DNA from: an uncultured Bacteroidia bacterium | GTDB lineage: Bacteria; Bacteroidota; Bacteroidia; JAIBAJ01 | Reading direction: 5' to 3' | NCBI GenBank assembly: GCA_965284645.1 | Contig: OZ260106.1 | Coordinates: 144,265-208,264, forward strand | DNA length: 64,000 nt | In this document: positions 11,060 through 63,340 of the stretch, piece after piece | Position numbering within the stretch: the first letter of the stretch is position 1 | Layout: each line of letters begins with the position of its first letter | Position numbers and translations under genes: made by a program | The notes under the pieces: generated by a model | Database searches by the model: none | What the model was told of the DNA's origin: nothing | Seen by the model: the letters and a program-made list of their open reading frames with translations, nothing else

Positions 11060-11230
11060 TTTAGTTTTAGGGATTTTATTTTGATTTGGCGGGCCCCTTT
11101 TCGCCCAAAACCATTTACACCTTGATTTTACCATTCTGCTAGGCGAAAAGGTCACGCTATCGCCCATACTCCTCGGAAGGCTCCGTGCCTCCGCCTTCCT
11201 CCGGGGTATTTGGCTCTATCGTTGCCCGGA
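11060..11230 (+). repeat. Family-1 intergenic repeat, copy 1 (diverged)
   Basis: Box A is tttggcgggccccttttcgcccaaaacc (11086-11112). Core B is ggtcacgctatcgcc..ctcctcgg..ctccgtgcctccgc..ctctatcgttgcccgg (11150-11229). Confidence 0.7.
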
Positions 11231-12708: not shown

Positions 12709-12880
12709 CCGGGCAAGGATAGAGGCAGTCTAGCCCACAGGGATGCGTAGGCACGGAGCAGACCGAGGACTAGCGCCGAAAGCCTGGCCCCAGCCACCCC
12801 ATGCCAAAAGGTTTTATATCGATGCAACTGTATTGGGTGGCTGGGGGCCCGCCAAATCCCTTTCTTAAAAAACTAAGATT
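12709..12880 (-). repeat. Family-1 intergenic repeat, copy 2 (reverse orientation, subfamily beta)
   Basis: ccgggcaaggatagaggcagtctagcccacagggatgcgtaggcacggagcagaccgaggactagcgccgaaagcctggcccc, plus box A reverse complement gtattgggtggctgggggcccgccaaa (12830-12856). Confidence 0.8.
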
Positions 12881-19356: not shown

Positions 19357-19539
19357 ACAGATTCTAATTTTTAATTTATCATTTTTAATTTCTTCATGCG
19401 TGCCCCCGTCCGCCAAAACCGGCATCACCTTGAAATGAACCAGTTACCAAGGGCGTCCGGGTCAGGCTATCCACTGCAAGTCCTCGGTCTGCTCCGTGCC
19501 TACGCATCCCTGTGGGCTTTTCGTTGCTATCCTTGCCCG
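19357..19539 (+). repeat. Family-1 intergenic repeat, copy 3 (forward, subfamily alpha)
   Basis: AT-rich leader ttctaatttttaatttatcatttttaatttcttc. Box A is catgcgtgcccccgtccgccaaaacc. Core B is ccgggtcaggctatccactgcaagtcctcggtctgctccgtgcctacgcatccctgtgggcttttcgttgctatccttgcccg. Confidence 0.85.
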
Positions 19540-19708
19540 ATGCCCGCCGTATATAGCTTGGGTAGAAGTATGAGGCCGCAAACCTCGCCTTAACTTTTTC
19601 GCCAAACGTTTGAAAAAAGGGGTGTTATACCGATTATAAATCTGTAATAGTCCAATTATGCTTCGCCATAATTTGCCAAAACAGCTTTTATATCGGCATT
19701 TACCAATT
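19536..19708 (+). repeat. Family-2 mosaic repeat, copy a (modules X+Y)
   Basis: cccgatgcccgccgtatatagcttgggtagaagtatgaggccgcaaacctcgccttaactttttcgcc...ggggtgttatacc (module X) recurs at 28564. gattataaatctgtaatagtccaattatgcttcgcc...cagcttttatatcgg (module Y) recurs at 63219. Confidence 0.85.
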
Positions 19709-20348: not shown

Positions 20349-23300
20349 CTAATTCTTAATAAACATAGCTCTGCTTTGTATACCAGCTAAAGTTAGTGTT
20401 ATGCAATATGCGCCTGATGCTATAGTTGAGGTGTTTAAATCAAACTGTTTGCCCGACTTATTAACCTCAGCCATTATTAGTTTTCCATACATATCATAAA
20501 CCTCTATAGCTATATTATTAGCAGGCTTGTTAAGGCTAATGGTTATATTTTCGATAGCGGGGTTTGGGTACAGAAAAAAGTTATCTCGAACGCCTTGTTC
20601 AATTATGGCTGTTACGTTTTGGTTTACTATAGTTGAAATTGTATCAGAACAACCCGCATTGCTAACTATAGCTATTAGTTCGCAACTGGCTGTATCATCC
20701 CAAATAACATTAATAGAATTAGTTCCTTGTCCCGTAGTTATAGTGCCACAATTTGTAATCCATTGGTAGGCATCGGCATTAAAATCTAATGTAACAAAAT
20801 AGGCATAAGGTTGAAGTGTATCTACCACTGTTGGTCCGTATATTGAATCTAACGGTGTTAGTGCAGGTACAACGTTTATAGACGTACTGGCATTGGTTGT
20901 GCAGCCTTGTAAATTAGACACAGCAACATTGTAGTTAGTAGTTTGTGTAGGTGACACAGTTATTGAGCTATTGGTAGAGCCTGTGCTCCATAAATAGCTA
21001 TCACCACCAGTAGCAGTTAATACTACTGAGCTGCCACTACAAACTGTAGCAGAAGGGGTAATGGTTGCTACAGGAGTTGGATTTACTGTTACTGTAATGT
21101 TGGTAATAGCAGTGCAGCCGTTTCCATTGTTTGATGTTACCGTATATGTTGTGGTTTGGGTTGGCGATACAGTTATACTTGCTGAAGTTGCACCATTGCT
21201 CCAGCTGTAATTATTTCCACCACTAACAGTTAGCGTGGTGCTATTACCTGAACACAATGTATTAGTACCTGAAATACTTAAAACAGGCCCTGGTAAAACA
21301 GTTACTGTTACTGAGCTGTCAGAAGAACAACCACTGCCATTATCTACTGTTACATTATAGGTAGTAGTTTGGTTAGGCGATACAGTTATGGCATTTGCAG
21401 TGGCCCCTGTATTCCATGTGTAGGATACGCCTCCTGTGGCTGTTAACGTTGTAGTACTACCTTGACAAATAGAAGTAACACCAGCAATGTTTATTGAGGG
21501 TGAATTTGATACAGTTACCGTTTGACTAGCTGATGCAGAGCAGCCATTGCCATTAAAAACAGTTACCGTGTATGTAGTAGTTTGGTTAGGGGCTACGGTA
21601 ATAGAGCTTGATGTTGAACCGTTGCTCCATACATAGCTGTTGCCTCCACTAGCCGTTAGGGTTGTGTTAGCACCTAAACAAATGCTATTTACACCAGTAA
21701 TACTTGGGCTTGGCGATGGGCTAACTGTTACGGTTTGGCTAGTAGATGCACTACAACCATTTCCATTGGTTACTGTCACTGTGTAAGTGGTTGTTTGGTT
21801 TGGCGATACAGTTATAGAAGCTGTTGTAGCTCCAGTACTCCATACATAGCTTGTATCTCCGCTGGCAGTTAAGGTGGTGCTGGCACCTGAACAGATGCTA
21901 TTTGTACCAGAAATACTTGGGGTTGGGGCTGGATTAACTGTTACCGTTTGGTTGGTTGAAGCGGTACAACCGTTGCTGCCTGTGGCTGTTACGCTATAGG
22001 TGGTTGTTTGGGATGGAGAAACAGATATTGAAGCTGTTGTAGCCCCAGTACTCCATACATAGCTATTACCACCACTGGCGGTTAATGTTGTGCTGGCACC
22101 TGAACAGATGCTATTTGTACCAGAAATACTTGGGGTTGGTGCTGGATTTACCGTTACTGCTTGGCTAACAGAAGCTGTACAACCGTTGCCATTTGTTGCT
22201 GTTACGGTATAAGTAGTGGTTTGGGTGGGCGATACGGTTATAGAAGCTGTTGTAGCTCCAGTACTCCATACATAGCTTGTACCTCCACTGGCAGTTAATG
22301 TGGTGCTATTGCCTGCACAAATAGTGTTAACGCCAGAAATGCTAGGTGTCGGCAGTGGATTTACTGTTACTGTTCGGGTAGTGTTGCCTGTACAACCATT
22401 GATACCTGTTGCTGTTACGGTATAGGTAGTGGTTTGAGTGGGCGATACGGTTATAGAAGCTGTTGTAGCTCCAGTACTCCATACATAGCTTGTACCTCCG
22501 CTGGCAGTTAATGTGGTGCTGTTTCCTGAACAAATAGTATTAGTGCCTGTTATGCTTGGTGTGGGTGCTGGATTAACTGTTACTGTTATGGTAGCATTAG
22601 CCGTACAACCGTTGCTGCCTGTGGCTGTTACGCTATAGGTGGTTGTTTGAGTAGGGGATACCGTTATAGAAGCGGTAGTAGCCCCAGTACTCCATACATA
22701 GCTGTTGCCACCACTGGCGGTTAACGTGGTGCTGTCACCTGAACATATACTGTTAGTACCTGAAATACTTGGTGTTGGTGATGGGTTTACTGTTACTACC
22801 TGACTAACAGAAGCTGAACATCCATTGCTATTGGTAGCGGTTACGGTATAGGTAGTAGTTTGGGTAGGCGATACAGTAATAGAGCTTGATGTAGAACCAT
22901 TGCTCCATGCATAGCTGCTTCCGCCGCTGGCAGTTAAAGTAGTGCTATTGCCTGCGCAAATAGTGTTAACGCCCGAAATGCTAGGTGTTGGCAGTGGATT
23001 AACCGTTACTGTTCTAGTAGTGTTGCCTGTACAACCATTGATACCTGTTGCTGTTACGGTATAGGTAGTGGTTTGAGTGGGCGATACGGTTATAGAAGCT
23101 GTTGTAGCTCCAGTACTCCATACATAGCTTGTACCTCCGCTGGCAGTTAATGTGGTGCTGTTTCCTGAACAAATAGTATTAGTGCCTGTTATGCTTGGTG
23201 TGGGTGCTGGATTAACTGTTACTGTTATGGTAGCATTAGCCGTACAACCGTTGCTGCCTGTGGCTGTTACGCTATAGGTGGTTGTTTGAGTAGGGGATAC

Positions 23301-26300
23301 CGTTATAGAAGCGGTAGTAGCCCCAGTACTCCATACATAGCTGTTGCCACCACTGGCGGTTAGTGTTGTACTGGCACCTGAACAGATACTGTTAGTGCCT
23401 GAAATACTTGGTGTTGGTGCTGGGTTTACTGTTACTGCCTGACTAACAGAAGCTGAACAACCATTGCTATTGGTAGCAGTTACGGTATAGGTAGTAGTTT
23501 GGGTAGGCGATACAGTAATAGAGCTAGATGTAGAGCCATTGCTCCATACATAGCTGGTACCACCACTGGCAGTTAAGGTGGTGCTGGCACCTGCACAAAT
23601 AGCGTTAACACCCGAAATGCTAGGTGTTGGCAGTGGATTTACTGTTACTGTTCGGGTAGTGTTGCCTGTACAACCATTGCCATTTGTTGCTGTTACGGTA
23701 TAAGTAGTGGTTTGGGTGGGTGAAACGGTTATAGAAGCTGTTGTAGCTCCAGTACTCCATACATAGCTTGTACTTCCGCTGGCAGTTAAGGTGGTGCTGG
23801 CACCTGAACAGATGCTATTTGTACCAGAAATACTTGGGGTTGGGGCTGGATTAACTGTTACCGTTTGGTTGGTTGAAGCGGTACAACCGTTGCTACCTGT
23901 TGCTGTTACGGTATAGGTAGTTGTTTGGGTGGGCGATACGGTTATAGAAGCTGTAGTAGCTCCAGTACTCCATACATAGCTATTACCACCACTGGCGGTT
24001 AATGTTGTGCTGGCACCTGAACAGATGCTATTAGTACCCGAAATACTTGGAGTAGGTAGTGGGTTTACCGTAACGGTTACGTTATCAGTGCAGCTAACTC
24101 CATTTTCAGTAACTGTGAGTGTATAAGTAGTAGTTTGTGTGGGACTAACATTAATAGTAGGTGTAGTAGCCCCATTACTCCATAAATATTGGGTGTTTGA
24201 TAAAGTATAAAGTTGTAGTACTTCTGAGGATGTTAATGCTCTATTATACAATGTAACATCATCTAATTTACCTGCAAAGTTTGCTGCATTGTTTTGATTG
24301 TTGTCGCCCAAAGTAAAGCCTGTTACAAAGTTGTCTGGACCTCCCATTGTAGTTGCTCTGCGTTGCGAACCTGTGTACCAGTTTCCGTCTGATAAAATCG
24401 TTGTTAATTGAACTCCATTGATGTATACTTTAACATCAGTACCATCGTAGCTTACTAGTAAATAATTCCAAGTTCCTGGGGAGATAAATCCATTTGTTTT
24501 ATAATCAATAGCAACGTCCCCAATACTTCCCATAGTATTAGCATTATATCGACCAAAAGCTATATCTGTTGTTGTATCGTTGGGTTGCCCTATTCTAGCG
24601 TAAACTCTTTTAAATGGGCTTACGTTATTACCATCAAATGAAAAAAAGACATTAGATGAGAGACCAAAGCCACCTCCATTATTTCCAGAAGCATCCCGAT
24701 TAAACCATAGCCCAACAGAAAAAGGGTTATTACCATCAATTAATTGGCGAAGGGCATTGTTATTATTGGCTATACGGGCACTCCCGTTAAAGTAATATGA
24801 AGTATTTGCTGCACCAGTTCTGTCAGTAGATAAAGTGGCAGAAGTTACCGTTCCATTATTCCCATTACCACTGGCATCATTAGCATTGCCGCAAAAGGGG
24901 TAGTAAGCCACTAAGCCCGTTTGTAAATTACTTGGCAAATTGGTTGAGGCACAAGCTTGTATTCCGCTGCTGCTGCTTGTATCGGCACTTAAGGTAATAC
25001 TTTGCCCTGCACAAATGGTGGTATCGTTTTGTTGTATTTGGGCGGTGCATGCGCCATTATATAAATCTGTTATTTCTTGTTGGGTTAAGGCGCGATTCCA
25101 AAAGCCAACATCATCAATTTTACCAATAAATTGTTGGTTTAAAACACTTGATCCAATAAAAAAATTTATACCTGTTCCGGTATTTAAAATGGTGCTTAGA
25201 TTAAAAGAACTGAACACGGTACTTAATAGAACTCCATCGAGATATACCTTTATTGCAGAAATAGTATTTCCAAAAGAGGGGTCATAAACCAAAACAAGAT
25301 TTCGCCATGAACCAAGTGTGTTAGATGAATAAAATACTTGACTATTACTTATGTCCATTCCGGCTTTGTCAGCCCCTATTAATGGTATAAAGGTACGGCC
25401 AGGTGAATTTTGCCCATATCCACCTAAAACCCAATCAGCTGACGGTCCATTACTTTGACTCTGTAAAAACCATAGAGATATAGACCGAGCACTCGTACCG
25501 GTAGGTCCAACTAGAGGTGTTTGAATATTTTGTGGAGTACTTCCATTATTAGCAAAACTGTAAGCACTATTAGCGTTCCCAAACCTGTCAGCAGTCAGCG
25601 TTGCACCGTTTACTGTACCGTTGTTGCCGTTGCCGCTCTCATCGCTAGCGTTACCACAAAATGGCCAGTACCCCACTAAACCACTAGTTGGAACATACGA
25701 TGGTAAACAGGTGCTTGAAGGTAATGAAGAATTATACAAGTTTGTTACCTCTTGCTGTGTTAAAGCTCTATTCCAAATGCCGATATCATCAGCCTTTCCT
25801 TTAAACCATCTATACCAGTCTACAGGTGCTGTATTTGTAAACTCTTTCCCTATATATAAAGGTTCAGATGAATTTATTAATGTTAAAGTTGTATTTGTTG
25901 TTTGTTCCAAAACACCATTTCTGTATAATGAAATATTAGTAGGTGTTTTTACTGCAATAATATTAATCCATGTGTTTAACGGAAGGGGAGCGTTTGAAAC
26001 TACAAAGGTTTGAGATGTTCCATTATGATTTACATGAGAACAATTGTTACTAAGATCCTGGTATACACTATTAATTGAATACCCTGTTTGCCAACCGGCC
26101 CCTCTTGGCTTGCCTAATATAGTTCTTACAGCGTCTGTATTTCCACTTCCATTAGGAAATTGAGGAGTTGAATAGTCAGGAATTTGCACCCAAACAGAGA
26201 TTGTGTAAGTTGTTGTAAAATCAAGTGAATTATTATCAGGAATACTAATAAAATCATTTACACCATCAAAGCTATATGCTGCATTAGTGTTACCAAACCT

Positions 26301-26408
26301 ATCGGTAGTTAGGGTTGCACCGTTCACGGTTCCGTTATTGCCGTTGCCACTTAAATCATTGGCATTACCTGTAAAAGGCCACCAGCCAACAAGGCCATTG
26401 GTAGGCAC
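20349..26408 (-). CDS. Giant T9SS-secreted adhesin-like protein: 3 LamG (Laminin_G_3-like) modules, 15 Ig-like repeats and a Por/T9SS C-terminal sorting domain
   Basis: The module GLVGWWPFxGNANDxSGNGNNGTVNGATLTxDRFGN...WNRALTQQE occurs three times. There are 15 units of 71 aa (SISGTNSICSGASTTLTASGGNSYVWSTGATTASITVSPTQTTTYTVTA..GC....TVTVNPxPTP). The C-terminus FFLYPNPAIENITISL...IEVYDMYGKLI...GAYCITLTL is T9SS type-A CTD-like. The track start is a GTG with no signal peptide. A proper signal peptide (ATG at 26479) lies one frame away across a T9 tract (see findings). Confidence 0.9.
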   Translation of the reverse strand: MPTNGLVGWWPFTGNANDLSGNGNNGTVNGATLTTDRFGNTNAAYSFDGVNDFISIPDNNSLDFTTTYTISVWVQIPDYSTPQFPNGSGNTDAVRTILGKPRGAGWQTGYSINSVYQDLSNNCSHVNHNGTSQTFVVSNAPLPLNTWINIIAVKTPTNISLYRNGVLEQTTNTTLTLINSSEPLYIGKEFTNTAPVDWYRWFKGKADDIGIWNRALTQQEVTNLYNSSLPSSTCLPSYVPTSGLVGYWPFCGNASDESGNGNNGTVNGATLTADRFGNANSAYSFANNGSTPQNIQTPLVGPTGTSARSISLWFLQSQSNGPSADWVLGGYGQNSPGRTFIPLIGADKAGMDISNSQVFYSSNTLGSWRNLVLVYDPSFGNTISAIKVYLDGVLLSTVFSSFNLSTILNTGTGINFFIGSSVLNQQFIGKIDDVGFWNRALTQQEITDLYNGACTAQIQQNDTTICAGQSITLSADTSSSSGIQACASTNLPSNLQTGLVAYYPFCGNANDASGNGNNGTVTSATLSTDRTGAANTSYYFNGSARIANNNNALRQLIDGNNPFSVGLWFNRDASGNNGGGFGLSSNVFFSFDGNNVSPFKRVYARIGQPNDTTTDIAFGRYNANTMGSIGDVAIDYKTNGFISPGTWNYLLVSYDGTDVKVYINGVQLTTILSDGNWYTGSQRRATTMGGPDNFVTGFTLGDNNQNNAANFAGKLDDVTLYNRALTSSEVLQLYTLSNTQYLWSNGATTPTINVSPTQTTTYTLTVTENGVSCTDNVTVTVNPLPTPSISGTNSICSGASTTLTASGGNSYVWSTGATTASITVSPTQTTTYTVTATGSNGCTASTNQTVTVNPAPTPSISGTNSICSGASTTLTASGSTSYVWSTGATTASITVSPTQTTTYTVTATNGNGCTGNTTRTVTVNPLPTPSISGVNAICAGASTTLTASGGTSYVWSNGSTSSSITVSPTQTTTYTVTATNSNGCSASVSQAVTVNPAPTPSISGTNSICSGASTTLTASGGNSYVWSTGATTASITVSPTQTTTYSVTATGSNGCTANATITVTVNPAPTPSITGTNTICSGNSTTLTASGGTSYVWSTGATTASITVSPTQTTTYTVTATGINGCTGNTTRTVTVNPLPTPSISGVNTICAGNSTTLTASGGSSYAWSNGSTSSSITVSPTQTTTYTVTATNSNGCSASVSQVVTVNPSPTPSISGTNSICSGDSTTLTASGGNSYVWSTGATTASITVSPTQTTTYSVTATGSNGCTANATITVTVNPAPTPSITGTNTICSGNSTTLTASGGTSYVWSTGATTASITVSPTQTTTYTVTATGINGCTGNTTRTVTVNPLPTPSISGVNTICAGNSTTLTASGGTSYVWSTGATTASITVSPTQTTTYTVTATNGNGCTASVSQAVTVNPAPTPSISGTNSICSGASTTLTASGGNSYVWSTGATTASISVSPSQTTTYSVTATGSNGCTASTNQTVTVNPAPTPSISGTNSICSGASTTLTASGDTSYVWSTGATTASITVSPNQTTTYTVTVTNGNGCSASTSQTVTVSPSPSPSITGVNSICLGANTTLTASGGNSYVWSNGSTSSSITVAPNQTTTYTVTVFNGNGCSASASQTVTVSNSPSINIAGVTSICQGSTTTLTATGGVSYTWNTGATANAITVSPNQTTTYNVTVDNGSGCSSDSSVTVTVLPGPVLSISGTNTLCSGNSTTLTVSGGNNYSWSNGATSASITVSPTQTTTYTVTSNNGNGCTAITNITVTVNPTPVATITPSATVCSGSSVVLTATGGDSYLWSTGSTNSSITVSPTQTTNYNVAVSNLQGCTTNASTSINVVPALTPLDSIYGPTVVDTLQPYAYFVTLDFNADAYQWITNCGTITTGQGTNSINVIWDDTASCELIAIVSNAGCSDTISTIVNQNVTAIIEQGVRDNFFLYPNPAIENITISLNKPANNIAIEVYDMYGKLIMAEVNKSGKQFDLNTSTIASGAYCITLTLAGIQSRAMFIKN
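20853..24190 (-). repeat. Coding tandem array: 15 full units plus 1 partial unit of 213 bp, with a 639-bp higher-order duplication
   Basis: Unit period is 213 bp (71 aa). By eye, 22381-22723 is identical to 23020-23362 (offset 639 = 3 units). Confidence 0.9.
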
Positions 26409-26446
26409 ATAATTGGGTATTTGGGCATAGGTTAGTATAGAAACTG

Positions 26447-26455
26447 AAAAAAAAA
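26447..26455 (-). other. Homopolymer tract (A9 on plus strand, T9 in the coding sense) inside the adhesin signal-peptide region
   Basis: ATG AAA AAA GTT CTT ATT TCT TTC T9 CAG.. stops after 15 codons. Adding one T gives MKKVLISFFFFSVSILTYAQ/IPNYVPTNGLVGWW, in frame with the 2019-aa ORF. Confidence 0.85.
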
Positions 26456-26540
26456 GAAAGAAATAAGAACTTTTTTCATAAGGAAAAATATTTTTTGCAA
26501 ATAACCAAGTTATAAACCGTTACTTAATAATCCAAAAAAT

Positions 26541-26579
26541 CCAAATAGTTCAAAAAAGCCAGATAGTTCAAATGGTTCA
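26541..26579. promoter_or_regulatory. Direct repeats in the divergent adhesin / HTH-kinase promoter region
   Basis: ccaaATAGTTCAaa (26541-54), ccagATAGTTCAaa (26559-72) and ATGGTTCA (26572-79). Spacing is 18 and 9 bp. Confidence 0.3.
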
Positions 26580-26656
26580 CTTATTATATATTTACCTTAA
26601 AATGTTATGAAAACAAATTTTTAAATTACATTTTTGCAGTTTATATTCTTTCGCAA

Positions 26657-27217
26657 ATGTTAAGACCGGATATTAAACAGCTTGTAGAAAATAAATTTGG
26701 CAAAGAAATTAACTATCCTAAAGATTGTGCTGTATTGGCTGAGGTAATGAGGATAGATAATAATTTACCCATAAGCTCTAGTACACTAAAGAGAGTTTTT
26801 GGCTTTTACGGCGAAATCGAAAAACCCCGCCTACACACATTAGATATGTTGGCAAAATATTTAGGGTATAAAAACTGGGCAGAGTTAGATAATCATTTAC
26901 TTCATAACGATAGTGGATTTGATGAAATTGAGACCATAGAAATAGATAAATTAGAACTAAACAATAAACTGGTAATTGAATATTCCTCAATAAGAAAGAT
27001 ACGAATGCAGTATTTGGGGGAGTTTAGGTTTGAACTATTAGAGTCTACCAGCAGTAAACTTCGCAAAGGAGATATACTGCGCATTCATAACCTCGTTAAA
27101 GGCTATCCCTTAATTTGCCAAAGTGTAATTAGGGATAACACTGATTTAGGAAAATATATAGGCGGCAAAACATCAGGCATTACTTATCTTTGTGTTTTAG
27201 ACACTAAGAAACTGTAA
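26657..27217 (+). CDS. Hypothetical protein with an N-terminal HTH-like region and a C-terminal beta-rich domain
   Basis: 186 aa. ISSSTLKRVFGFYGEIEKPRLHTLDMLAKYLGYKNWAEL looks like an HTH segment. The stop is 1 nt before the kinase ATG. AT-rich. Confidence 0.6.
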   Translation: MLRPDIKQLVENKFGKEINYPKDCAVLAEVMRIDNNLPISSSTLKRVFGFYGEIEKPRLHTLDMLAKYLGYKNWAELDNHLLHNDSGFDEIETIEIDKLELNNKLVIEYSSIRKIRMQYLGEFRFELLESTSSKLRKGDILRIHNLVKGYPLICQSVIRDNTDLGKYIGGKTSGITYLCVLDTKKL

Positions 27218-27218
27218 T

Positions 27219-28397
27219 ATGTTATATCATGAATCATCGTTTATTATTAATGATGATGGAGGTGCAGATGACCAGATATTATTAAGTTCTGGCGGAACAT
27301 GCAATATTTACAGGCTGCGAATTGATAAGAAATTTTATATTCGGAAAGAACTAAAACCTAAGCATAGCCAAGACCCTGTTTACTTAATTGCCTTTGATAG
27401 GGAGTTTGAAATTGGCCAAGAGCTAAACCACCCTAATATTGTTAAGTATTTATATAAGCACCAAGGCTATATAATACAAGAGTATTTGGACGGAGAGACA
27501 TTAGCTGTTTTAGCTGAAAATATTGCATTCTATTCCATTAAGCAGCGGTATCTGCAAATTGAAAAGTACTTATACCAGCTATGCACAGCTGTTGAATACC
27601 TTCACAGTAAAGGTATAACCCACGGCGATATAAAGCCCCAAAACATTATTGTTACTCATGTCTCTAATGAGTTAAAACTCATTGATTTTGGACATGCCTA
27701 TACACTACAATACGAAGGTATAAAAGGAGGTACGCCGGGCTACTTAATGCAAGATAATGATTTAGGTTCTTTTGAAGAACGTAAAATTGCCGATTTGTAC
27801 GCAATCCAAAAAATAGTTAACGAGCTATTGACTATTGGTTTGCAATCCCATGAAACCAATGCTAAAGTAACGGCATACATTAAAAACACGGGAAAAAAAT
27901 TACCCAAAACGGCTCAAAACATTTATAGTAGCTATCTAGAACTAAAACGTAGAAAATCAATTTTATACATGCTGCCAATTCTCTTGTTTGTTATTATTGG
28001 CATACTGGTTTATTGGTTTGTAAGCCCACAAAAACAGGCAGCGGACATAAAGGCACCTGTTATTATGACAAAACTAAAAGTGCCTAATAAAACAAAAGCA
28101 CCAAATTTAGAAATTGAACATAATAGCGATGCTTATATGTGGGGTGGTAAGTTTTATAAACCACTAAATGATTCTATTAACAAAGTGAAATATAGCCTGA
28201 CAAACACTGAATTTTTCAGTATCAGAGCGTTTTTTATATTGAAGAATGACAATCAATGGCAAACTGTCTTAAATAAAGTCCCGATGGTTAGGCAAAAAGC
28301 CCTTCAAACCGATTATAACAAGGGATATGTAAATGCATATAAAAAATCAGAAGATATTTATATATTGCATAATAAAAAATACCCAATAGAAAAATGA
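27219..28397 (+). CDS. Membrane-anchored Hanks-type Ser/Thr protein kinase-like protein (non-RD)
   Basis: G-loop-like SSGGTCNIY, Lys in YIRKELK, catalytic loop THGDIKPQNIIV (HGD instead of HRD), LIDFGHA, GTPGY, a single TM ILYMLPILLFVIIGILVYWFV, and a C-terminal domain of about 115 aa of unknown type. Confidence 0.8.
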   Translation: MLYHESSFIINDDGGADDQILLSSGGTCNIYRLRIDKKFYIRKELKPKHSQDPVYLIAFDREFEIGQELNHPNIVKYLYKHQGYIIQEYLDGETLAVLAENIAFYSIKQRYLQIEKYLYQLCTAVEYLHSKGITHGDIKPQNIIVTHVSNELKLIDFGHAYTLQYEGIKGGTPGYLMQDNDLGSFEERKIADLYAIQKIVNELLTIGLQSHETNAKVTAYIKNTGKKLPKTAQNIYSSYLELKRRKSILYMLPILLFVIIGILVYWFVSPQKQAADIKAPVIMTKLKVPNKTKAPNLEIEHNSDAYMWGGKFYKPLNDSINKVKYSLTNTEFFSIRAFFILKNDNQWQTVLNKVPMVRQKALQTDYNKGYVNAYKKSEDIYILHNKKYPIEK

Positions 28398-28563
28398 ATT
28401 TCCCAAAGTTATATAATGGCAAGGTTGTGGGAAGAACCTCAACAGGTTAATCATTAAAAAATGTGTGCGGTATGTTCAGATTTAAATAGCTCTCAAACCC
28501 ATACTAAAATTATGACCCAAAAACGAAAAAGTTGAAGTATAAAAGGGAAATGTTCTTTCAACG

Positions 28564-28705
28564 CCCGATGCCCGCCGTATATAGCTTGGGTAGAAGTACG
28601 AGGCCGCAAACCTCGCCTTAACTTTTTCGCCAAGCGTTTGTAAAAAGGGGTGTTATACCAATCTAAATTTGTATATTGCCTTTAGACCATTTACAAATTA
28701 AATAA
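28564..28705 (+). repeat. Family-2 mosaic repeat, copy b (modules X+Z)
   Basis: Module X is nearly identical to 19536-19633 (about 97 nt with roughly 3 mismatches). Module Z (ctaaatttgtatattgcctttagaccatttacaaattaaa) matches 63291-63340. Confidence 0.85.
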
Positions 28706-28735: not shown

Positions 28736-29062
28736 TTATGCTAGTTTTATAAATTGTTTTTCAAGTTTTACATTAAAGTTTATTTCCGCTTTTAAGGCTT
28801 TAAACACTTTTATAATCGTTTCAATTGTTGCACTATTTGTGCTACTTTCTAATTTTGAAATTTGAGATTTTTGAACTCCAACAATTTTGCCCAATTCCTC
28901 CTGAGTTAAATTGCGTTCTTTCCTTGCCGCTTTAATCATTTTGCCCAAAACATCCATTCGTAGTTCGTATTCGTACTCGTCACGAACTTCTGTACCAACT
29001 TTACCAATATACTTGTCTTTCATTTCGGCAAGCGAGTATGTTTTCATTTCTTTGTTTGCCAT
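28736..29062 (-). CDS. higA: XRE-family HTH antitoxin (HigA-like)
   Basis: 108 aa. NLTQEELGKIVGVQKSQISKLES is an HTH_XRE motif. It lies immediately downstream of the toxin gene with a 1-nt gap. Confidence 0.8.
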   Translation of the reverse strand: MANKEMKTYSLAEMKDKYIGKVGTEVRDEYEYELRMDVLGKMIKAARKERNLTQEELGKIVGVQKSQISKLESSTNSATIETIIKVFKALKAEINFNVKLEKQFIKLA

Positions 29063-29063
29063 T

Positions 29064-29408
29064 TTATTTATGATTATGTTTACTATTAAAATACCTCTCT
29101 CTTATTTTAACTGCTCTGTCTATTTCTTTTTCTGGAACTTTGTCCACTTTCTTAATAAATCCGTGCGTTGCAATTACCAATGTTTCCTTTCCGTCAGTTT
29201 TATCCCAAAATGCTAGAAGTCTAATTTGTTGTCCTGCAAATAGCGTTCTAAACTCCCAAATGTCATTTTTAAGTTTTTTGAATAGTCTAGGGTCGTTGGT
29301 TTGTTCGGCTAAGTCAATATTATAAAATACTTTTCTAGCAGCCTTTAGGTCAAGTTCAGCAATGAATTTGTCAGCTTCTTCTAAAAATCGTGTTTCAAAA
29401 AACCGCAT
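29064..29408 (-). CDS. higB: RelE/ParE-superfamily toxin (HigB / Gp49-like)
   Basis: 114 aa. The toxin-first gene order, the size, and DIWEFRTLFAGQQIRLLAFW...VIATHGFIKK are typical of phage Gp49-like HigB toxins. Confidence 0.75.
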   Translation of the reverse strand: MRFFETRFLEEADKFIAELDLKAARKVFYNIDLAEQTNDPRLFKKLKNDIWEFRTLFAGQQIRLLAFWDKTDGKETLVIATHGFIKKVDKVPEKEIDRAVKIRERYFNSKHNHK

Positions 29409-29440: not shown

Positions 29441-29643
29441 CATAGGTTTCCAAATATTGAAACTTTTTTGGTCGTTTAATTTACAAAACAACCTTTTAAC
29501 TCAAATTCCGCATTAGAAATGCAAGTACAAAGGCAACTAAGTAAAGTAGTTCAGATTTAAAAACCCTCCTATTGATCAATTTGAGATTAAAAAACATAGC
29601 AAACAACCAGACATGAAATACCACACTTCAATACTTCAGCTAC

Positions 29644-29848
29644 AACCGGGCACGAAGAACCCCGGGCAACGATAGAAGCGTAAAGCCCACAGGGATGCGG
29701 AGGCACGGAGCAGACCGAGGACTTGCAGCGGATAGCGTGACCCGGACGCTGCTGGCACAAAACTAAGCTTTACAGGTAGAACTTAAGGCAGCGGAAGGGG
29801 GCCCGCATGAAGAAATTAAAAATGATAAATTAAGAATTAAAAATTGAA
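29644..29848 (-). repeat. Family-1 intergenic repeat, copy 4 (reverse, subfamily alpha)
   Basis: aaccgggcacgaagaaccccgggcaacgatagaagcgtaaagcccacagggatgcggaggcacggagcagaccgaggacttgcagcggatagcgtgacccgg, then gcggaagggggcccgcatgaagaaattaaaaatgataaattaagaattaaaaa. The ends match the reverse complement of copy 3. Confidence 0.85.
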
Positions 29849-29886: not shown

Positions 29887-31791
29887 CTATTTCACAATAA
29901 AAATCGGTATGGAAACGGCGTGTCGAACGGCATCTAGGGTTGTACCCAACAGAATATCTTTAAGCATGCGGTGGCCGTGAACTCCCATCACCAATAAATC
30001 GGCCTTAAACTCGCTGACCAACACCGGAATGCGCTCTTTGGGACTGCCATATCCGAGCACATAACTGGCTTTGTAACCGCTTACACTTAGTTCGGCGATA
30101 TACTCCTGAATATAGGATGTATCGGTTTGGGTTTCCTTGTCGTGGATATGGTCGCCATACATGCGGGCTCCAGCAGTTTCAACAATGTGGATAAGCCTGT
30201 ATTCGGCCGATTTGCCCCCTTGCCGCACAGCCTCCTTAATGGCTAATACATCCTTATCGGAAAAGTCGATGGTGATGGCAATGCGACCATACTGCTCGGG
30301 ATGGGTTAAATCAATCTGTTTTAACGCACCATGGGGCGAACCATAAGACTTGGGCTTATACGATTTGAGCAGGGGTTTGACAGCAATGTAAACCAACAAG
30401 CCAAAGGCCAATACTGCGGCTGGAACGGCAGTAAGGTAAATCAAGGCCGGGGAAGTGGAATCGGCTATCCAGGTCTCGATTTGATCCACGACCAATCGCA
30501 TATTCAATCCAACTATAACCAAAGCGATAATCCAAGCCACTACCGCCAAGGGTTTTGAAATAGCGAATTTGCCCATTTTGAGCTTGCTCGATGTGAAATG
30601 GATGAGGGGAACAATGGCAAAACCAAGCTGCAAACTAAGCAAAACCTGACTGAAAACCAGCAATTTACCTACCGAACCTTCACCAACCAACACAATGGTA
30701 GCTACGGCAGGCACTATGGCTACCAGTCGGGTAATCAATCGCCTTAGCCAAGGTTGCATGCGTAAGTTCAGGTAACCTTCCATGACAATTTGACCCGATA
30801 AAGTTCCGGTAAGGGTGGAACTTTGTCCGGCGCAAAGCAAGGCGGTGGCAAAAAGTATAGGCGCCCATTTGGTGCCCAACAAAGGTTGGAGCAATTGGTG
30901 CGCATCTTCGATATCGCCAATGGTTGTCATTCCTGCTTTGTAAAACGTGGAAGCAGCCAAAACAAGAATGGCTGAATTGACAAAAAAGGCTAGGTTGAGA
31001 GCAATGGCCGAATCGATGAAATTGAATTTGATGGCTTCCCAAATGCCTTGGTCGGAACGGCGGAACTTACGGGTTTGCACCAAGGCCGAATGCAGGTATA
31101 GATTATGGGGCATAACCGTGGCACCGATGATTCCAATGGCTAGGTAAAGAGCTGTTTCATTGGGGATGGAAGGGATTAGACCTTTGGCCATTTCGACCGG
31201 ATCGGGTTGGGCAAAAAACATTTCCACCAAAAAAGACAATCCGATGATGGCCACCAATCCGATGATAAAAGCTTCCATCTTACGCATGCCAAAGCGTTGC
31301 AGAAAAAGCAGCAGGAAGGTATCGAAGAGGGTAATCAAAACCCCATACAGCAAAGGAACCCCGAAAAGCAGTTTAAGTCCGATGGCCATACCAATTACCT
31401 CGGCTAGGTCGGTGGCTGCGATAGCAATTTCGGCCAAAAGCCATAGAAAAAAGTTTACCACTTTGGGATAGCTCATGCGGGAAGCTTGGGCCAAATCGAG
31501 TCCTGAAACAATGCCTAAACGAGCTGCCAAACTTTGGAGCACCAAGGCCATGAGGTTGCTCATGAGTAGCACCCAAAGCAAGGTGTAACCGAAAGCGCTA
31601 CCGCCGGCTATATCGGTGGCCCAATTGCCCGGATCCATGTAGCCTACGCTGACGAGGTAGGCCGGACCGAGGAATGAAAGCAAGCGTTTCCAAACCGACT
31701 TGGATTGGGTGGTATCGACACTGGCATTTACATCTTCCAAAGAAGGCGTAAGCCCGGTATTGGCTTGGTGTGTACTCATTTTTTCTTGCAT
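29887..31791 (-). CDS. mntH: Nramp-family divalent metal (Mn2+/Fe2+) transporter fused to a C-terminal universal stress protein (UspA) domain
   Basis: GYMDPGNWATD and MPHNLYLHS Nramp motifs over about 11 TMs. The last 150 aa or so (RIAITIDFSDKD...LLVMGVHGHRMLKDILLGTTLDAVRHAVSIPIFIV) are Usp-like. An alternative ATG at 31779 forms an ATGA overlap with the mntR stop. Confidence 0.9.
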   Translation of the reverse strand: MQEKMSTHQANTGLTPSLEDVNASVDTTQSKSVWKRLLSFLGPAYLVSVGYMDPGNWATDIAGGSAFGYTLLWVLLMSNLMALVLQSLAARLGIVSGLDLAQASRMSYPKVVNFFLWLLAEIAIAATDLAEVIGMAIGLKLLFGVPLLYGVLITLFDTFLLLFLQRFGMRKMEAFIIGLVAIIGLSFLVEMFFAQPDPVEMAKGLIPSIPNETALYLAIGIIGATVMPHNLYLHSALVQTRKFRRSDQGIWEAIKFNFIDSAIALNLAFFVNSAILVLAASTFYKAGMTTIGDIEDAHQLLQPLLGTKWAPILFATALLCAGQSSTLTGTLSGQIVMEGYLNLRMQPWLRRLITRLVAIVPAVATIVLVGEGSVGKLLVFSQVLLSLQLGFAIVPLIHFTSSKLKMGKFAISKPLAVVAWIIALVIVGLNMRLVVDQIETWIADSTSPALIYLTAVPAAVLAFGLLVYIAVKPLLKSYKPKSYGSPHGALKQIDLTHPEQYGRIAITIDFSDKDVLAIKEAVRQGGKSAEYRLIHIVETAGARMYGDHIHDKETQTDTSYIQEYIAELSVSGYKASYVLGYGSPKERIPVLVSEFKADLLVMGVHGHRMLKDILLGTTLDAVRHAVSIPIFIVK

Positions 31792-32438
31792 AAAAGGTTA
31801 GTGGCTACCCTAAAACTCAGGGTAACCGGTGTTTTTTGTTGGCCAACTTTCACCAAGCAGCTTTTGTCGTATGCTTCAATGGATAGCAAGGTGAGGGATT
31901 GACCTAATTTGAGTCCGAGTTTATCGACATAAGCCAAAAAACTGGGACTGTGGTCAGATATTCCTGCAAAAAGAATGGTATGGCCCAGGTTGGCTTCCGA
32001 CAAAGGAAAAGGGTTGAATTCCGGCATTTTTCCGGATTGGTCGGGTATTGGGTCGCCATGGGGATCGAATTGAGGAAACTGCAGGAACTGGTCGAGTTTT
32101 TCGGTAAGAAAATCCGATTGCACATGCTCCAATTGTTCGGCTATATCGTGTACTTCGTGCCAGCCCATTCCCAATTTATCGACCAAGAATACTTCCCACA
32201 AGCGGTGTTTGCGAACCACTTTCAAGGCGGCCGAACGACCGGAATCGGTCATACTTACCCCACGGTACTTTTCGTAGGAAATGAGCTTTTTAGCCGAAAG
32301 CCTTTTGATCATATCTGTGACGGTTGGGGCTTTGTGGCCAAGAAGTTCGGCCAAGGCATTGGTACTCACCGCTCCTTGTTCGATTGATGTAGCTTTGAGG
32401 ATGGCTTTGAGGTAATTCTCTTCAGAAAGGGTATTCAA
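31776..32438 (-). CDS. mntR: DtxR/MntR-family metal-dependent transcriptional regulator with a FeoA-like C-terminal domain
   Basis: ENYLKAI...STNALAELLGHKAPTVTDMIKRLSAKKLI winged HTH, a metal-binding dimerisation region, and an SH3-like tail. TTG start. Confidence 0.85.
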   Translation of the reverse strand: MNTLSEENYLKAILKATSIEQGAVSTNALAELLGHKAPTVTDMIKRLSAKKLISYEKYRGVSMTDSGRSAALKVVRKHRLWEVFLVDKLGMGWHEVHDIAEQLEHVQSDFLTEKLDQFLQFPQFDPHGDPIPDQSGKMPEFNPFPLSEANLGHTILFAGISDHSPSFLAYVDKLGLKLGQSLTLLSIEAYDKSCLVKVGQQKTPVTLSFRVATNLLCKKK

Positions 32439-40788: not shown

Positions 40789-40970
40789 CCTAATTTCTAA
40801 TTCTCTAATTCCTAATTTCTAATTCTTTTGGCGTGTCCCATTCGCCCAATACCCTTTTCCCGTTGAAATTAGATTTGTGCAAGGCGAATGGTCGGGCTAT
40901 CCACTGCAAGTCCTCGGTCTGCTCCGTGCCTCCGCATCCCTGTGGGCTTTTCGTTTCTATCCCTACCCGG
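40789..40970 (+). repeat. Family-1 intergenic repeat, copy 5 (forward, subfamily alpha)
   Basis: Leader cctaatttctaattctctaattcctaatttctaattc. Box A is ttttggcgtgtcccattcgcccaataccc. Core B is ggtcgggctatccactgcaagtcctcggtctgctccgtgcctccgcatccctgtgggcttttcgtttctatccctacccgg. Confidence 0.85.
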
Positions 40971-48024: not shown

Positions 48025-48172
48025 CCGGGCAAGGATAGAGGCAGTCTAGCCCACAGGGATGCGGAGGCACGGAGCAGACCGAGGACTAGCGCCGAAAGCC
48101 TGACCCGAACGCCCCAGTACACTGTAAAATTTAAAGTACAAAGGGTTTTGGGCGGAAGGGGGCCCGCCAAAT
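48025..48172 (-). repeat. Family-1 intergenic repeat, copy 6 (reverse, subfamily beta)
   Basis: ccgggcaaggatagaggcagtctagcccacagggatgcggaggcacggagcagaccgaggactagcgccgaaagcctgacccg, then ggttttgggcggaagggggcccgccaaa. Confidence 0.85.
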
Positions 48173-58367: not shown

Positions 58368-58530
58368 GTTTGGCGGGTCCCCTTGCGCCCAAAACCAGGT
58401 GGCCATTACATAGGCATAGGTGCCCGGCGCAAGGGTCGCGCTTTCGCTAGTACTCCTCGGTCTGCTCCGTTCCTCCGCAGCCCTGTGGGGTACCACGCTC
58501 TATCGCTACCCGGGGTTCTTCGTGCCCGGT
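58368..58530 (+). repeat. Family-1 intergenic repeat, copy 7 (forward, diverged)
   Basis: gtttggcgggtccccttgcgcccaaaacc, then ggtcgcgctttcgctagtactcctcggtctgctccgttcctccgcagccctgtggggtaccacgctctatcgctacccggggttcttcgtgcccggtt. Confidence 0.8.
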
Positions 58531-63197: not shown

Positions 63198-63218
63198 TTG
63201 AACTATTTGATTTATTTC

Positions 63219-63340
63219 CGATTATAAATCTGTAATAGTCCAATTATGCTTCGCAATTATTTGCCTAAACAGCTTTTATATCGGAATTTACCGATCTAAA
63301 TTTATAACCTGCCATTGGACCATTTATAAATTAAAATTGG
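63219..63340 (+). repeat. Family-2 mosaic repeat, copy c (modules Y+Z)
   Basis: ccgattataaatctgtaatagtccaattatgcttcgc..cagcttttatatcgg matches 19631-19708. ctaaatttataacctgccattggaccatttataaattaaa matches 28655-28705. Confidence 0.85.

Follow-up and report, generated by a model that had tools for sequence, protein, structure and literature searches.

A conserved Bacteroidota gene pair encoding a receptor-type Hanks kinase and a putative autoregulatory DNA-binding partner

Two-component systems of the OmpR/PhoB type pair a sensor kinase one-to-one with a DNA-binding protein, are autoregulated, and use head-to-tail direct repeats that replace or overlap the -35 element of the promoter. Other operator organizations include the arrays of contiguous 7-11-bp units that are cooperatively bound by the omega repressor and ParR, and the inverted repeats that serve as operators of HipB. 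Dedicated pairs of a Hanks-type Ser/Thr kinase and a regulator are few, and those considered here, viz., PknH-EmbR and PknK-VirS, are mycobacterial; the virS gene is placed divergently from the mymA operon. Phosphorylation by PknK raises the affinity of VirS for the mymA promoter, and mymA in turn affects the ultrastructure of the cell wall (PMC4601284). By and large, bacterial Hanks kinases have been seen as enzymes with many substrates (2015 review on Gram-positive pathogens; PMC4601284). Here, we analyze a two-gene locus in a 64-kb stretch of DNA (hereinafter the window, to the whole of which all positions refer unless a related locus is named) from an uncultured Bacteroidia bacterium (contig OZ260106.1). 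The first gene (26657..27217, plus strand) codes for a protein of 186 amino acids (aa), the partner, and the second (27219..28397, plus strand) for a single-pass receptor Ser/Thr kinase of 392 aa, the kinase. We propose, with a probability of about one half, that this receptor kinase phosphorylates the partner as its cognate, autoregulating DNA-binding protein, with the two genes constituting an autoregulated signaling operon specific to Bacteroidota.

The partner-kinase pair and its two products

The two genes are conserved as a functional pair. In the window, the TAA stop codon of the partner gene (27215-27217) is separated by a single base from the ATG of the kinase gene at 27219 (junction ...CTG TAA t ATG...), and both genes are AT-rich (GC 0.337 and 0.335 versus 0.414 for the window), agreeing on both counts with an earlier note made from the DNA letters. 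The survey of the pair covers 57 related loci from Bacteroidota genomes and metagenomes (denoted by L-numbers), amounting to 36 partner clusters at 90% identity, 34 of them with enough flanking sequence to be informative. A kinase gene directly adjoins the partner gene on the same strand in 27 of these 34 clusters (downstream in 26, upstream in 1), with gaps ranging from -35 to +105 nucleotides (nt) and often amounting to 1 nt or to a 4-nt overlap. Relatives of the kinase comprise four close ones (74-99% identity) and then a shell of 360-540-aa proteins at 30-38% identity; in every kinase context inspected, a partner homolog adjoins, and the adjacency is kept even where the identity to the window proteins drops to ~39% for the partner and ~37% for the kinase (e.g., a 182-aa partner with 39% identity, E=6e-50). 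The earlier note had named non-adjacency in related genomes, loss of the catalytic residues, and membership of characterized housekeeping families as grounds for abandoning the pair; none of these was found, because the adjacency and the catalytic residues (see below) are conserved and neither protein matches a characterized housekeeping family in Pfam, NCBIfam, or PADLOC. A search of a paper library likewise recovered nothing describing this combination of partner and transmembrane (TM) kinase, in keeping with the note, whose author knew of no such described system. One locus (L018:6039-7452) carries a decayed cassette with an N-terminally truncated partner and an 80-aa N-terminal kinase fragment that still has the sequence NSGF, with a PIN-like gene inserted between the two remnants.

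The catalytic domain of the kinase (27291..27851, plus strand; residues 25-211) matches Pkinase (PF00069) with E=8.6e-25 and 88 bits against a cut-off of 31.7; Pkinase is the only Pfam match, with no HipA family among the hits. The kinase motifs previously quoted from this sequence are all present, viz., the G-loop SSGGTCNIY, K43 in YIRK, H135-G-D137-IKPQN142, D156FG, and GGT172PGY without an APE. Across 25 aligned homologs, K43, E62, H135, D137, K139, N142, D156-F-G158, and D192 are invariant; among these are the VAIK Lys (K43), the alpha-C Glu (E62), the Asp of HxD (D137), the Lys and Asn of the catalytic loop (K139, N142), DFG, and the alpha-F Asp (D192). In the same alignment, the window kinase has none of the canonical GxGxxG loop, the arginine of the arginine-aspartate (RD) motif, or the APE motif: its G-loop is SSGGTC against a family consensus of xGGTxxxY, and the APE position is degenerate (YLMQDN). 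The family is largely non-RD, because G, L, or M stands between H and D, with R found only in one gut clade. The missing canonical motifs are features of this non-RD subgroup and do not exclude membership in the Hanks superfamily, of which the window kinase is a non-RD member with predicted catalytic competence.

The catalytic domain is followed, as had been claimed, by a TM helix and an extracytoplasmic domain. The helix (ILYMLPILLFVIIGILVYWFV; 27960..28022, plus strand; residues 248-268) is directly preceded by KRRKS, and in all complete kinases of the family, the catalytic domain is followed by exactly one such segment, within residues 233-271. In the AlphaFold2 (AF2) model, the extracytoplasmic domain (28122..28379, plus strand; residues 302-387) is a ~90-aa bundle of 4 helices with a predicted local distance difference test score (pLDDT) >90. 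A structure search with this model against the PDB gave no significant match, only weak ones to generic helical bundles. The ectodomain is weakly conserved across the family, with one invariant Trp, and it varies in kind, from the small helical bundle of the window to a Kelch beta-propeller that makes up the extracytoplasmic part of a partner-linked kinase of 710 aa (L010:5179-7311). The single TM segment after the catalytic domain, together with the varied ectodomains, therefore constitutes a receptor-kinase pattern.

The AF2 model of the partner (pLDDT 86) has five helices (4-84, with the N-domain spanning residues 1-84), then a linker that is disordered (84-87), and further on a beta domain of 8 strands (104-181), the last corresponding to a C-terminal beta-rich domain noted earlier. 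Between the two domains, only residues 84-87 are modeled with low confidence (pLDDT <50). Conservation within the protein is highest in the N-domain, with the near-invariant residues S40, T43, K45, and R46 in a short polar/basic third helix (codons 40-47, SSSTLKRV; 26774..26797, plus strand), a candidate DNA-recognition helix, followed by a P57-R58-x-Y-T-x-D motif. The helix-turn-helix (HTH)-like character that the note had ascribed to the N-terminus found no support in profile or fold comparisons; in particular, no profile or fold similarity ties the N-domain to an HTH of the Xre/Cro-C1 or AraC type. The partner has no match in Pfam, NCBIfam, or PADLOC (for Pfam and NCBIfam, up to E<=1 with the window protein and up to E<=0.1 with 51 members), a sequence-profile search of the PDB returned only spurious connexin matches, and the best Foldseek match of the model to a repressor had E=0.34. 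The partner belongs to no described family, and both its domains are without a significant match in the PDB or BFVD. A single-sequence search with the partner finds only three relatives, and a profile search finds 182 clusters in a 90%-identity collection; in a library of 1.84 billion proteins, the profile recovers 3,774 representative clusters at E<=1e-3, of which 277 lie below 1e-30. The members are nearly all 180-200 aa long, go by the name 'hypothetical protein', and lack any Pfam domain, and their named sources are all Bacteroidota (Bacteroidales, Flavobacteriia, Crocinitomicaceae, Dysgonomonas sp. 511). In a further set of loci (L054:7004-8284, also L055-L057), the N-domain (1-84) is fused in a 426-aa protein to a ~340-aa helical domain without a Pfam match, with GTTCA repeats upstream and no kinase nearby; because of this fusion, the N-domain can be regarded as a mobile module.

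The 9-nt array and the S-x-F motif

When the 150 nt that precede the partner ATG were aligned by eye for 43 non-identical loci, most showed an array of 3-8 tandem 9-nt units with a GTTCA or GTCCA core, always in the orientation of the partner gene. The window array is comprised of six units (ATCCAAAAA ATCCAAATA GTTCAAAAA AGCCAGATA GTTCAAATG GTTCACTTA; 26530..26583, plus strand), located 73 nt from the partner ATG and 50 nt from the ATG of a divergent adhesin gene (26479, minus strand), and is a candidate operator of the partner. The pattern RTYCAN4RTYCAN4RTYCA (<=1 mismatch) recovers the array as its only site in the 64-kb window, with 4 overlapping matches versus 0.49 expected, and across 1.2 Mb of the loci ~36 of 45 arrays with at least 3 units lie directly upstream of a partner gene. 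According to a scripted search for the Bacteroidetes -7 motif (TAnnTTTG), 27 of the 30 upstream regions with both features have the -7 box 30-32 nt past the start of the last unit; a scan for sigma-70 promoters was uninformative (9 sites versus 13 expected). The array thus ends over the -33 region, a stretch that class-II activators such as PhoB occupy and in which repressors, too, act by blocking the promoter. Arrays are found, too, upstream of the N-domain fusions (L054/L055) and of kinase-less partners (L013, L016, L059, L061), and hence follow the N-domain rather than the kinase or the barrel. This distribution offers good indirect evidence that the N-domain may be a sequence-specific DNA-binding domain. 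The array co-occurs with the partner as a conserved cis element whose place in the partner's own promoter is fixed, as would be expected of a sequence-specific DNA-binding autoregulator. The gut Bacteroidales/Dysgonomonas clade has [AG]TCCA as the core and Asn instead of Ser at partner residue 42; such a link between residue 42 and the core is only suggestive, because a single clade is involved. Two loci (L022/L023:3359-7549) have an inverted repeat (ACACATCTATATGTGT) in place of the 9-nt array upstream of a kinase-less partner, which has Asp at position 86 and is divergent from genes for a 986-aa Reg_prop protein and a GerE-type response regulator.

A second feature connects the partner to the kinase. 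The inter-domain linker of the window partner reads D-S-G-F-D, with S86-G87-F88 (26912..26920, plus strand) being a candidate phospho-acceptor or docking motif of the form S-x-F. All 29 kinase-linked partners have Ser86, and 28 of them have Phe88. Among seven kinase-less partners, the residues at position 86 are S, E, D, E, E, E, and D, i.e., acidic in six of the seven, and the Phe is lost in all. A rough neighbor-joining tree places the kinase-less forms in at least 2-3 separate places, with acidic replacements in at least 2-3 lineages. Three members lacking S-x-F (P0196, LPEKEI; P0229, KSNNLL; P0154, SSEQNI) were predicted beforehand to be kinase-less, correctly in 3 of 3 cases. Altogether, S86-x-F88 occurs in 28 of 29 kinase-linked versus 0 of 10 kinase-less partners (Fisher p=1.7e-8, not corrected for phylogeny). 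The kinase shares the motif at its own N-terminus (H-E-S6-S-F8; codons S6-S7-F8, 27234..27242, plus strand), where S-x-F within the first ~14 residues is seen in 34 of 34 non-identical partner-linked kinases versus 70 of 525 other open reading frames (ORFs) of the same loci (Fisher p=9e-28). A motif common to the tail of a kinase and its substrate has a precedent: for PknH, a review reports a likeness between the substrate recognition motif and the site at which the kinase phosphorylates itself (PMC4601284). These patterns suggest that Ser86 may be the phospho-acceptor, or at least that S-x-F may be a docking motif, and that, in lineages that have lost the kinase, Asp or Glu at position 86 could act as a permanent phosphomimetic.

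In the mechanism that we propose, the kinase would act as a single-pass receptor whose catalytic domain is cytoplasmic and whose sensor domain, small and helical, lies outside, and the partner would be its dedicated cytoplasmic target. The N-domain of the partner would bind the head-to-tail 9-bp repeats, with one unit per monomer, on an array that adjoins or runs into the -33 region of the promoter of the operon itself. Upon a signal, the kinase would phosphorylate Ser86 within the S-x-F of the flexible linker, which would change the occupancy of the array by the partner. The altered occupancy would then raise or lower the transcription of the operon and probably also that of divergent genes for secreted or surface proteins, here an adhesin exported via a type IX secretion system (T9SS).

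Neighboring genes and probable output

The divergent gene (20349..26479, minus strand), which had already been recognized as a giant T9SS adhesin, codes for a 2019-aa cargo protein with three LamG domains (Laminin_G_3), an Ig_7 domain, fifteen 213-nt repeats, and a C-terminal Por_Secre_tail (PF18962, E=3.8e-11, residues 1946-2007). The repeats (20871-24178; ~15 tandem copies) each encode a 71-aa Ig-like unit and have 60-88% mutual identity. The signal-peptide codons (26409-26479, starting from the minus-strand ATG at 26479 and reading MKKVLISFFFF...) are out of frame with the gene body, and a run of nine A residues at 26447-26455 results from a 1-nt deletion: L001 and L002 read CTGTAACAAAAAAG where the window has CTG-AAAAAAAAAG. 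This break could mean that the gene is a pseudogene inactivated by a frameshift, that the tract serves phase variation by strand slippage, or that the homopolymer was misread in sequencing.

In most loci, the gene upstream of the partner is divergent, and a signal peptide or lipobox is usually found at the start of the first genes of that operon. A protein with a T9SS C-terminal domain (CTD) is encoded there in the window and in L001-L003, L009, L010, L016, L017, and L031, i.e., in about a quarter of the loci (~7 clusters plus the window), on which account the idea of a T9SS-specific regulator was rejected. Other divergent products are collagen-repeat, Fib_succ_major, beta/gamma-crystallin, DUF5122 propeller, WG_beta_rep, and MORN-like proteins. 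Divergent operons with DUF6175 are found in both kinase-linked (L020) and kinase-less (L059) loci; in gut Bacteroidales and Dysgonomonas (L020, L040-L046, L059/L060), the DUF6175 protein is part of a conserved operon for lipoproteins and signal-peptide-bearing proteins. Literature searches on DUF6175 and on kinase regulation of T9SS cargo gave nothing relevant; a T9SS regulator found in the literature, PorXY, acts on the secretion machinery. The earlier suggestion of a dedicated sensor/regulator of the divergent adhesin has points on both sides: the upstream gene is mostly divergent and usually codes for a secreted protein, but a T9SS-CTD occurs in only about a quarter of the loci and the cis element is tied to the partner's own promoter. 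Regulation of the adhesin is plausible as one instance of a more general pattern.

On the other side of the pair, an 18-codon remnant of a third gene is found (28394..28450, plus strand); in the closest relatives, this gene overlaps the kinase stop codon (ATGA) and codes for 100 aa (L001:9176-9478, L002:4591-4893) with three ~30-aa repeats (GKVEVR..GSL.R.IGNGDA) and no Pfam family. Two related contigs from metagenomes share the adhesin, partner, and kinase genes in synteny, with 82-87% nt identity, the homology to L002 ending at 28558. A copy of a dispersed repeat then begins at 28563 (28563..28662, plus strand), at the synteny break between the cassette and a minus-strand toxin-antitoxin (TA) pair that lies outside the cassette. 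This pair, correctly identified before as HigBA, comprises a HigB-like Gp49 toxin (29064-29408; PF05973, E=6.6e-15) and an HTH_3 antitoxin (28736-29062; PF01381, E=8.3e-14), with the toxin gene first and a 1-nt gap, and is missing from the syntenic relatives L001 and L002. Of the accessory island that had been envisaged around these genes, the region past 28558, i.e., the repeat and HigBA, is indeed specific to the window, whereas adhesin, partner, and kinase are syntenic in relatives. The island had also been described as bounded by repeats; this is literally true, with inverted arms at 19362-19539 and 29663-29842 and the direct copy at 28563-28662, but the element, a GC-rich intergenic repeat of ~270 nt in both orientations, is scattered over the window in at least 8 copies. 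The bracketing thus carries little weight, and the idea of a repeat-bounded island was rejected. Copies of the repeat lie at 19362-19634, 28563-28673, 29663-29842, 40795-40969, 48026-48167, and 12710-12790, with further ones at 11150-11228, 58454-58489, and 63218-63288, and it gives rise to spurious ORFs (e.g., 29587-29760). It is not a known RNA, as a scan of the whole window against Rfam gave no matches. Beyond it, a 634-aa ORF (29887-31791, minus strand) is presumably of the Nramp/MntH type with a C-terminal extension like a universal stress protein, and the adjoining gene (31776-32438) is one that we take to be DtxR/MntR-like; both readings are from sequence.

Weighing of the readings and comparison with known systems

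Several points weigh against the proposal of an autoregulating DNA-binding partner that is phosphorylated by its receptor kinase. Neither Pfam, NCBIfam, nor a PDB profile search assigns the partner to an HTH family; an hhalign comparison of the partner profile with five Xre-type HTH_3 proteins from the loci gives a probability of 1.6%, and the best Foldseek values for its model (E=0.067 in the PDB, 0.006 in BFVD) are not significant. The 9-bp spacing of the array is not a helical repeat, the array in the clade of the window lies ~22 nt further from the partner promoter than it does in other clades, with no perfect -7 box, and there is no second array in the 64-kb window, so that no regulon is defined. 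The correlations of S-x-F with the kinase and of the core with residue 42 rest on few independent lineages, and no phosphatase gene accompanies the pair. The divergent neighbors are heterogeneous, and the position of the array is fixed to the partner promoter, with its distance to the divergent gene varying from 70 to 870 nt; given this geometry, the conserved function may be autoregulation only. The window array, being 50 nt from the adhesin ATG, could serve the divergent promoter.

The failure of every profile and fold method to find an HTH or other DNA-binding fold would also suit a partner that does not bind DNA at all and instead serves the kinase in the cytoplasm as an adaptor, a substrate, or a regulatory subunit, one example being a beta-barrel that binds a ligand, as the weak matches of its C-domain to Sm-like and MoaF-like barrels might hint, with the array bound by another factor or forming an element of promoter architecture. 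We consider this unlikely, since the array keeps a fixed distance from the N-domain gene across divergent loci, including the barrel-less fusions and the kinase-less loci, and the N-domain, with its polar/basic helix (S40, T43, K45, R46) and P57-R58-x-Y-T-x-D motif, is the most conserved part of the protein. The N-domain is also fused to a long helical-repeat domain, and the combination of a DNA-binding domain with such a domain is an architecture typical of HTH regulators. The organization of the locus brings to mind, too, a TA system in the style of HipBA, in which the partner would be an autorepressing antitoxin whose C-domain neutralizes the kinase as a growth-arresting toxin: the partner gene comes first, with 1-nt spacing or 4-nt overlaps, the operator repeats overlap the promoter, the cassette is AT-rich, patchy, and often near integrases and other TA pairs, and decayed copies such as that in L018 exist. 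Nonetheless, the kinase has a Hanks fold with no HipA family, the partner has no HTH_3 match, and the invariable membrane anchor with a sizeable and variable ectodomain is the signature of a receptor rather than of a cytoplasmic toxin. Moreover, because the partner persists without a kinase in several lineages, beside the same kinds of secreted-protein operon and with phosphomimetic residues replacing Ser86, it behaves as a regulator that has outlived its kinase and not as an orphan antitoxin, making a HipBA-style system rather improbable.

The earlier note had also entertained a horizontally acquired phage- or stress-response module in a defense island, which could be conceived as a kinase system akin to PD-T4-6 or Stk2 with the partner as its sensor or regulator. 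The PADLOC profiles PD-T4-6, MAD6, and MkoA do match the kinase (E down to 2.4e-24), the NCBIfam models for BREX PglW and MADS6 match it weakly, and some loci are near HigBA, GIY-YIG, AAA, WYL, integrase, or HepT/MNT genes. All these profile matches are, however, confined to the generic kinase core (21-213): the PD-T4-6 match (E=2.4e-24) aligns residues 21-213 with profile positions 16-213 of 311, leaving out the TM helix and ectodomain, and the NCBIfam scores are far below the cut-offs (e.g., 42 versus 990 bits for PglW). The partner matches no PADLOC model, the recurring conserved neighbor is a secreted-protein operon and not a set of defense genes, and the single-pass receptor topology with variable ectodomains points to signaling and argues against an intracellular sensor of phages. 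The defense claim accordingly finds little to sustain it, and we deem such a function very improbable.

Returning to the receptor kinase with its cognate autoregulating partner, one could extend the proposal to a system widespread in Bacteroidota that couples one kinase to one regulator in the manner of two-component systems, using Ser/Thr chemistry and interchangeable ectodomains. Its regulators would possess a hitherto unseen DNA-binding fold, polymerize head-to-tail on 9-bp iterons at their own promoters, be phosphorylated at a linker Ser, switch neighboring operons whose products are secreted or surface proteins (T9SS adhesins among them), and become fixed as phosphomimetics after loss of the kinase. 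This extended picture is possible, but in its entirety we regard it as doubtful. The pairing of a Ser/Thr kinase with a transcription factor is already known; what is new here is the regulator family, the type of operator, and a testable hypothesis for the phosphosite. If the proposal is true, Bacteroidota, including gut Bacteroidales and Dysgonomonas, would gain a modular, genetically linked system of receptor kinase and transcription factor, and a large unannotated family (3,774 representative clusters with no Pfam model) would gain a function. It would further point to a new DNA-binding fold and provide a lead on the switching of individual T9SS adhesins and other surface-protein operons. 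Three handles are available for its study, viz., the predicted operator, the predicted phosphosite, and a natural phosphomimetic control.

Among systems resembling the locus in its layout, HipBA likewise has an HTH-like protein encoded first, a closely coupled gene for a Ser/Thr kinase, and operators at the promoter, but HipA is cytoplasmic and of another fold, in contrast to the Pkinase domain, TM helix, and ectodomain seen here. The nearest precedent for 3-8 abutting 9-bp units is provided by the omega repressor and ParR; those, however, are ribbon-helix-helix dimers of plasmid partition and maintenance, whereas the N-domain of the partner is all-helical. With OmpR/PhoB-type systems, the locus shares, by analogy only, the one-to-one pairing of kinase and regulator, head-to-tail repeats near the promoter, and autoregulation; it differs in having neither a receiver domain nor a histidine kinase, in its Ser/Thr chemistry, in a period of 9 bp as opposed to 10-11 bp, and in its 3-8 units. 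In the PknK-VirS-mymA system of M. tuberculosis, a Hanks kinase similarly phosphorylates a transcription factor, but PknK is soluble with a STAND domain, VirS belongs to the AraC family, and pknK and virS are not translationally coupled. PknH-EmbR of the same organism combines a single-pass receptor Ser/Thr kinase with a neighboring cognate transcription factor, a target with a DNA-binding domain and a beta-rich C-terminal domain, an output in cell-envelope genes, and a substrate motif resembling the kinase's own phosphorylation site (PMC4601284). EmbR is built from an OmpR-type winged helix, BTA, and FHA, none of which is matched by the partner, and the present pair differs further in the 186-aa size of the partner and its would-be acceptor, a linker Ser in S-x-F, as well as in phylum, ectodomain, and operator (9-bp tandem arrays). 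Functionally, the closest known systems are PknH-EmbR and PknK-VirS and, by analogy, the two-component systems of the OmpR/PhoB type.

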